Assembly (NCBI GenBank): GCA_964016885.1
Contig: OZ024743.1
Span: forward strand, 50,654,001-50,718,000
DNA from: Eledone cirrhosa
Lineage: Eukaryota
Direction of reading: 5' to 3'
Length of the DNA stretch: 64,000 bases
Below, piece after piece: positions 24,697 through 25,360 of this stretch. How positions within the stretch are numbered: the stretch's first letter is position 1; each line of letters begins with the position of its first letter. The position numbers and the translations under genes were made by a program. Under the pieces are notes generated by a model. It had not been told where the DNA came from. It made no database searches and was given only the letters and a program-made list of their open reading frames with translations.

Positions 24697-25360
24697 TAAT
24701 GAGAGGTATACAAAGAGAGGGACAAAAGAAAAAATAGGTATATTGTATCTATTATTCCTTTTTATAATATTTTACATAACTCTGATATTGTGTCAATTTA
24801 ATTATTTCGATTATTTTGTCTCTCATAATCATAGAGTAACACTGGTTAAGGTCGACAACATACAATCTCACATACTTGTGAAAAATATATGTTTATATAT
24901 ACATGTATATGTATGTATACACATATATTTGTATACCTCTCATTATTGTCTCTAACTCCCTCACGGTAGAGTAACCACGGAAGTATAGTGACTGCTTTCA
25001 AGCAAACACTATATACACTTCTAGTCAACCTTACCACCATTCTGTAGCCTATGTATCATATCAATATCTCCCTCCGCCTTCTGAGATATTTTCACTGTTA
25101 CAAGGGATTAATCCCCTTTCTTGACCGGTGTATCACGTGATAGAGTCTCCCTCCGCCTTTCTGAGATTCTCTTGCATGCTACGGACGTATGTAGTTAGGG
25201 CTCTTCTCTGAGGTGGTCCCTTGATAAGCTGACTTACCTCACAACAATGTTACATATCTATGATATAACATTCTTGCATAGTGACCAGCGAAACTGTACA
25301 GTCGGGACAAAAGAAAAAATAGGTATATTGTATCTATTATTCCTTTTTATAATATTTTAT
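24697..25360 (+). mobile_element. 585-nt HHR monomer with terminal direct repeat starting at the cleavage site (family R3)
   Basis: GGGACAAAAGAAAAAATAGG...ATATTTTA at 24719 and 25304; 24697-24714 is an inverted copy of 24928-24946. Confidence 0.8.
25216..25308 (+). ncRNA. Type I HHR with U3-A8 core variant
   Basis: GTCCC-TTGATAA-GCTG...CAGC-GAAA-CTGTACAG-TC-GGGAC. Confidence 0.85.

Follow-up and report, generated by a model that had tools for sequence, protein, structure and literature searches.

Within the window, i.e., the whole stretch of 64,000 nucleotides of Eledone cirrhosa DNA which was analyzed, a copy of a 585-nt non-coding unit is embedded in a (TA)n microsatellite and is preceded by a short inverted piece of the same unit. 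Unit positions are numbered m1 to m585, m1 being position 24719 of the window. The locus is organized as follows:

24564..24698, no strand: (TA)n target microsatellite, left flank (repeat annotation)
24696..24714, minus strand: short inverted arm of 19 nt, m228 to m210, a copy of 24928-24946 (direct comparison)
24715..24718, plus strand: GAGA filler at the head-to-head junction (direct comparison)
24719..25303, plus strand: a complete 585-nt non-coding unit (m1-m585), with which the forward arm begins (direct comparison)
24719..24774, plus strand: first copy of a 56-nt repeat, containing the m1-46 hairpin and the hypervariable A-rich tract m6-17
24946..24949, plus strand: site B, m228-231, fixed 3' end of family copies and putative reverse-transcription start site (3'-end counts)
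25216..25308, plus strand: type I hammerhead motif with a U3-A8 core, predicted cut 25303/25304, junction intact (descriptor)
25304..25359, plus strand: second copy of the 56-nt repeat, whose end is site A (m56-60), the second of the fixed 3' ends
25358..25432, no strand: (TA)n target microsatellite, right flank (repeat annotation)

Direct comparison bore out most of the architecture described in the original prediction. The segments 24719-24774 and 25304-25359 are identical over exactly 56 nt, with no further identity upstream, and this direct repeat goes with a 585-nt unit at 24719-25303; the piece at 24696-24714 matches 24928-24946 over 19 nt and is followed by GAGA; and (TA)n runs are present on both sides. 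Two elements had to be refined. The inverted piece, regarded as a copy of internal sequence, does correspond to m210-228, but it is not an arbitrary segment, as its outer end coincides with B, the "tail" end, which is one of the two fixed 3' ends of the 585-nt family. Likewise, the 5' end of the unit had been placed exactly at the ribozyme cleavage site: a start at m1 fits, but the bases 24715-24720 (GAGA and the next GG) are the same six bases as 24701-24706 of the inverted arm, so that the first two G may be filler and the start is m1-m3. Sequencing contigs from four runs, whose kind is unrecorded, cover 24945-25355 (411 nt) as family variants and carry no information on RNA ends or on the m1 junction.

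The hammerhead motif is composed of GTCCC TTGATAA, a stem II GCTG..CAGC, GAAA and CTGTACAGTC^GGGAC, the caret marking the predicted cut. It combines a palindromic helix III, a helix I of 4-5 bp and a long helix II insert with a U3-A8 variant of the core, instead of CUGANGA. By descriptor, its layout is that of a type I hammerhead, with core positions 3-9, GAAA..NUH, helices I to III and an open helix I, the predicted cut being 25303/25304, in agreement with the cleavage after 25303 originally proposed; eight motifs were retrieved in the window, versus zero or one in each of eight shuffles. In Rfam, no hammerhead match was obtained at the gathering score nor at E values up to 10, only chance AT-rich hairpin families being returned, which may be because of the long helix II insert and the variant core. 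In the minimum-energy fold of the region, stems I and III are not formed (z 0.63), and single-sequence folding as well as RNAalifold on 35 copies recovered helix II alone.

Among 146 other copies, of which 107 are young and 39 older, U3, U4, G5, A6, A8 and A9 are conserved in 104-106 and 36-38, respectively, the 3' half of the motif being invariant partly through how copies were found. The only position of the 5' core which varies between subfamilies is N7, a free position in hammerheads. Double-sided helix changes were found for 0 of 6 pairs in the close family. Across subfamilies, pair 2 of helix I is C-G in 75 of 114 motifs, U-G in 23 and U-A in 12, switches affect pairs 3 and 5 of helix II in two motifs each, and in a distant relative (L321) helix III has changed and is still palindromic. 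Collectively, these comparisons indicate that the hammerhead motif is under structural constraint. Two changes in the motif are private to the window copy itself: one adds a fifth pair to helix I and the other removes a fifth pair from helix II.

Seven more hammerhead-like motifs, from at least three other families, were retrieved in the window, which also contains large simple and minisatellite arrays:

1839-1925, plus strand: hammerhead-like motif (descriptor)
20097-20136 (minus) with 20207-20246 (plus): head-to-head hammerhead-like pair, U3-A8 core (descriptor)
20752-20835, plus strand: hammerhead-like motif (descriptor)
25479-25539, minus strand: hammerhead-like motif (descriptor)
26294-26333 (minus) with 26400-26439 (plus): head-to-head hammerhead-like pair, U3-A8 core (descriptor)
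12122-16213, 27365-32933, 41233-42158, 56143-57448: large simple/minisatellite arrays (14-nt, ACT, 64/128-nt, 72-nt units)

One of the head-to-head pairs is enclosed in a near-perfect 94-nt hairpin (26273-26460). A neighboring insertion, at 23543-24564, has inverted arms of 125 nt, and at 24020-24418 the minus strand translates into a broken frame which, judged by eye, resembles the terminal part of a Penelope GIY-YIG endonuclease. Other U3-A8 hammerhead families, with a short helix II and a different palindromic helix III, were also encountered (L212-L214, L216, L217, L219-L222 and L262); in the last of these loci, a shorter tandem unit with an inverted arm lies ~2 kb from an element with a reverse transcriptase (RT) plus GIY-YIG.

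The 3.0-Gb genome contains 252 exact matches to the 3' half of the ribozyme, 40 more matches to ribozymes of related subfamilies and 1624 first-look candidates. The 585-nt unit is a non-coding repeat of several hundred copies. Its GC content is ~35% (base counts in young arms), its folding beats 100 of 100 shuffles (z -4.3) and, in being non-coding and GC-poor with a type I hammerhead, it agrees with animal non-LTR retrozymes. Loci were fetched around exhaustive pattern matches and mapped onto the unit, giving, after duplicate removal, 287 arms which make up 162 insertions. This is not an unbiased sample. Segmental duplicates (L018, L022-L025), one L181 duplicate, matches to the AT-rich hairpin alone and clusters below 60 bits were removed before counting; 17 arm ends at a SINE were treated as censored; and two matches to m1-31 (C25 and C614) as well as four matches from another pattern search lie outside the arm set. 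Segmental duplication is itself visible in the family, one insertion being repeated five times (L021-L025, G000:C4:204.13-204.58 Mb) and another being present twice (L017/L018). Family arms such as L002, L003, L004, L009, L015 and L026 contain head-to-tail repeats with two complete hammerheads. The longest of the 287 arms measures 899 nt, i.e., 1.54 units, and no long master array was found among them, with 100 of the 252 ribozyme matches listed and 40 of the 1624 candidates scored.

The outer 3' ends of the copies cluster at two sites, A (m56-60) and B (m228-231), and mostly enter (TA)n. For A, 110 arms were scored at m60 and 15 at m52, and for B, 34 at m228, 17 at m229, 4 at m230 and 51 at m231, this spread being partly due to TA microhomology; TA comes next at 120 of the 139 A ends and at 82 of the 126 B ends. 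Head-to-head insertions represent 96 of the 162, the other 66 being single-armed or otherwise arranged. When both ends of a tail-out insertion are at A or B, they are mixed in 86 cases out of 88, with one AA and one BB (p 1e-23 versus 0.5), and in eight further head-to-head insertions one end lies elsewhere. The A-B spacing amounts to a tail of ~172 nt at one of the two insertion ends; target-site duplications are unreadable within (TA)n. The window copy, with its 19-nt B arm and ~640-nt A arm, is of the commonest insertion type in the family. It has one ribozyme and 1.1 units, which makes it monomer-class, and an adjacent inverted 5'-truncated copy placed head to head, i.e., the layout of Penelope-type insertions. 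Four other arms of 17-21 nt share the limits of its inverted arm (m208-212 to m228-229), at the foot of an AT-rich hairpin.

A very abundant element of ~190 nt, which gives the impression of being a tRNA-derived SINE, was found recurrently inserted at ATTAT motifs with short duplications, including inside the 585-nt family, where its insertions lie at m25-33 and m224-231, the latter being the B end (L110, L050, L083, L088, L113, L123, L177, L182, L192 and others).

We consider, with a probability of about 0.7, that the window copy is a two-armed, head-to-head retroposed insertion in (TA)n which underwent ordinary 5' truncation on a junction-intact template. A Penelope-type reverse transcriptase/endonuclease acting in trans likely made it, the enzyme being deduced from the layout because no autonomous element sharing the unit was found in the loci examined. 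This enzyme would nick both strands of (TA)n, use A as the priming site of one cDNA and B as that of the other, and extend each towards the 5' end of the RNA until it stalls, after which the two cDNA ends would be joined head to head via microhomology or a short filler. In the window copy, the B arm would have stopped after 19 nt, at the foot of the AT-rich hairpin, and the A arm would have gone through the ribozyme and, after copying one unit, ended in the main termination zone of the family, m575-m37, where the A-rich tract, the hairpin and the ribozyme fold would hinder copying. Its start at m1-m3 would then be one draw from this zone.

The genome is rich in Penelope-type RT/GIY-YIG proteins. 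The window copy and its 1.5-kb flanks (L001) contain no stop-free stretch of at least 220 aa, and the copy lacks an RT and GIY-YIG reading frame, i.e., it is not an autonomous Penelope-like element. No cognate autonomous element was present in 60 endonuclease-match loci and 42 related-hammerhead loci, a very small share of the first-look candidates, which number more than 10,000. Several candidate partners were rejected. Between the element and the RT/endonuclease frames located near copies lie microsatellites or other sequence; a young and abundant Penelope-type family (L267-L295; 14,867 first-look candidates) has no similarity to the unit, and the hammerhead descriptor retrieved nothing in its loci; and the sole match near endonuclease loci, L321, proved to be another head-to-head copy, from a distant subfamily.

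The most serious rival explanation, which we hold to be unlikely, retains the same element and machinery but has the 5' end of the window copy cut by the ribozyme, from a template which would be a partly cleaved multimer or a circle reopened at the site. The upstream ribozyme would be cut and the downstream one uncut, and the termination zone would be the trimmed edge of cut RNAs, about half of the templates. A start at m1-m3 is what such cleavage would leave, as are six arms ending at m585-m1, two of them in one insertion (L057, both arms of which end at the cut). However, 207 junction crossings were counted against six ends at m585-m2 (287 arms, not an unbiased sample). Exact matches to m1-31, a pattern which misses mutated copies, number 108 genome-wide. 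In 100 of them the base expected 8 nt upstream is retained, and every one of these 100 reads through the cut. The remaining eight comprise three mutated read-throughs, three copies stopping at m579-582 (4-7 nt upstream of the cut), one at m585/m1 and the window copy. Starts within a base of the cut are thus 1 in 107 other exact matches, which is the background expectation (p 0.35-0.66).

The enrichment of 5' ends around the cut covers a broad zone, which begins 10 nt upstream of it and reaches ~35 nt downstream (m575-m37). Of 70 pooled passes through m38, one is censored and 34 of the other 69 end in this zone; of the 35 which continue, 3 end over the following 54 nt (p 3e-5). Survival analysis with fixed anchors, on three samples, gave terminations per 100 nt of 1.25-2.2 in m4-37, of 1.8-2.0 in m583-m3 in two samples (the third having 0 of 6 at risk) and of 0.1-0.5 across m228-m572. 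The step-like fall of terminations close to the cut would suit cleavage, and it counts against ordinary truncation that the upstream edge of the zone is only ~10 nt from the cut, as does L057. Conversely, cleavage does not explain why there is no spike at the cut, why the zone reaches 10 nt upstream of it and why most zone ends fall 4-33 nt downstream. The rate within the zone is flat, the 6-nt bin with the cut (5/43) being comparable to the five downstream bins (25/291, p 0.57), and when the window copy is left out m585-m2 takes 3 of 42 passes, which is above the genome-wide background (p 0.002-0.03) but not above the zone rate (p 0.29). Eight arms stop before the cut in unit order, at m575-582 in the upstream palindromic helix III, and therefore carry bases that a cut RNA would lack. 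As a genome-wide test of the original prediction, these counts reveal 5' ends enriched around the cleavage site without an exact pile-up.

A second, weaker termination peak (0.6-1.0 per 100 nt) is located at m126-175, beside another hairpin and far from any cut. In the main zone, several junctions (L006, L007, L013 and L038) are fold-backs of the m1-46 hairpin; the hairpin alone fails to explain the zone, however, because the local folding energy of m1-50 (-7.8) is weaker than that of several windows without a termination peak. First-pass arms ending in the zone are 9 of 45 for A and 11 of 23 for B (p 0.025), with the proviso that very short A arms may be missed, and this difference is predicted by no simple model. 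The zone may be due to stalling, to a collision with the second priming site or to cut RNAs whose ends were trimmed.

The template can be approached by comparing repeated passes over the unit. Every arm longer than 60 nt (A) or 231 nt (B), including the window copy, has an intact ribozyme junction, so that the template was uncut at the junction or re-ligated; since 25303/25304 is itself such a junction, the window copy is not simply the cDNA of a cut monomer. Between passes of the same insertion, family-polymorphic sites differ in 15 of 100 comparisons on the same strand and 28 of 201 between opposite arms, versus ~3% at other sites and 33% between insertions. The differences are sometimes linked changes (L017, L177), and some sites may be mutation hotspots. 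Such comparisons point to passes coming from related, often non-identical units, as heterogeneous partial tandems or two RNA molecules would give, and count against one monomer circle as the general template. They also weigh against cleavage of the template of the window copy, which is favored by the tract m6-17 being identical in both of its passes, as one unit copied twice would give; identical tracts are likewise found in 4 of 32 other within-insertion pairs.

This 12-nt, A-rich tract (24724-24735 and 25309-25320) follows the cut closely and has 67 forms among 123, beside nearly invariant m1-5. Within insertions it is identical in 5 of 33 pairs and different in 28, the window copy being the only one of eight same-arm double passes with identical tracts. 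Its variability suggests that the reverse transcriptase stutters at m6-17, and because error-prone copying coincides with the termination zone, stalling at the 3' foot of the ribozyme is suggested as well. RNA editing was rejected as the cause of this variability, since no strand bias was observed, with A>G at 4.0 and T>C at 4.55 per 1000, the tract itself being left out.

Conservation of the motif, as expected from a working ribozyme, with a 5' core varying only at N7, compensatory changes in helices I and II and a palindromic helix III kept in the distant relative, also argues for cleavage. On the other side, related minimal Penelope hammerheads have been reported to be poor cleavers in vitro and to require dimers (PMC4209133), and for the anole element described below RNA ends at the cut were not found (PMC11167929). 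That the insertion is the cDNA of a self-cleaved or circularized unit RNA is therefore retained only in part: a ribozyme-bearing RNA unit was retroposed, with its junction intact and with passes which differ from each other. The further claim that the 5' end of the window copy attests ribozyme activity in vivo is not supported, as most copies run through the cut or stop scattered around it. Ribozyme cleavage in vivo is, in our view, doubtful. Similarly, we regard as tentative a combined scheme in which cleavage of a large share of templates by the ribozyme leaves a termination plateau with its edge at the cut, and in which the strands are primed at sites 172 nt apart, one per strand, by an asymmetric enzyme dimer.

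A DNA-level origin, by fold-back replication or TA-repeat recombination without an RNA template and with the ribozyme motif as a passenger, is very improbable. It would fit the location of copies in unstable (TA)n, the segmental duplication of some loci (L017/L018, L021-L025) and the lack of a strand-biased substitution pattern indicative of an RNA step. Against it, the copies are spread over many contigs, and their two fixed 3' ends, strictly paired as A and B, and their randomly truncated 5' ends bear, with this dispersal, the signature of target-primed reverse transcription; ribozyme changes across subfamilies also preserve the structure.

Retroposition with ordinary 5' truncation finds close parallels in known systems. 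Insertions of Penelope elements have been described as inverted 5'-truncated copies which target microsatellites and bear, at one end, a tail of 30-40 bp (PMC8557442; PMC3846280). Endonuclease-bearing Penelope-like insertions (Arkhipova et al., 2013, PMC3846280; Craig et al., 2021, PMC8557442) resemble the 585-nt family in their partial tandem with an adjacent inverted 5'-truncated copy, one-end extension, microsatellite targets, junction microhomology and hammerhead near the 3' end. They differ in that the 585-nt unit has no reading frame and an end spacing of ~172 nt instead of a 30-40 bp tail, and in that the pairing of a short and a long end is nearly strict here, whereas it is worded as "often" or "optionally" in these papers. 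In Poseidon, from the green anole, two internal start sites have been shown in vitro to define the tail, insertion being cleavage-independent (Frangieh et al., 2024, PMC11167929). As in the 585-nt family, two RT start sites downstream of the hammerhead cut set the genomic ends, the target is AT-rich and uncleaved RNA appears as the main substrate; by contrast, the sites of Poseidon are adjacent (tail of 30-40 nt) and exhibit no strand difference in vitro, while those of the 585-nt family are far apart, with one per arm. Neither a tail of ~172 nt nor a count of A/B pairing was found in the published passages searched.

Non-coding hammerhead repeats have been described as retrozymes, with a Penelope origin (PMC7229834; bioRxiv 10.64898/2026.07.22.740005). 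Animal non-LTR retrozymes (Cervera and de la Pena, 2020, PMC7229834; Li, Clavereau, Pollet, bioRxiv 10.64898/2026.07.22.740005) are, like the 585-nt unit, non-coding, low-GC and highly self-paired, with a type I hammerhead, head-to-tail junctions, dispersed monomers and Penelope elements in the same genome. The unit is longer than the 150-450 bp of the first study and falls inside the 51-972 bp of the second. In contrast to these retrozymes, arrays of the 585-nt family reach at most 1.54 units among the 287 arms, and the family is known here from genomic copies; the inverted two-arm layout was not found described in the passages of the two retrozyme papers which were searched. Finally, the U3-A8 minimal hammerheads of Schistosoma mansoni (Cervera and de la Pena, 2014, PMC4209133) share with the present motif U3-A8 in place of C3-G8, a helix I of 4-5 bp, a palindromic helix III suiting dimer folding and a G10.1-C11.1 pair. 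The present motif departs from them by its helix II insert of ~50 nt and by the lack of an attached RT-endonuclease frame in any locus examined. A circle model has been proposed for Penelope tandems in the same study (PMC4209133).

The single coincidence of the window 5' end with the predicted cut has insufficient weight alone. The role of the hammerhead in Penelope elements has been described as unclear (PMC8557442), and the hundreds of young copies of the 585-nt family offer a genomic read-out of this role in the Penelope cycle: about half of the passes reaching m37 continue through an intact junction, which bounds the share of template that is cut. The near-strict use of one A and one B end per insertion provides a quantitative constraint on the priming of the two strands, and such a unit, small, non-coding and with start sites separated by 172 nt, would be a convenient substrate for testing how strands are primed.
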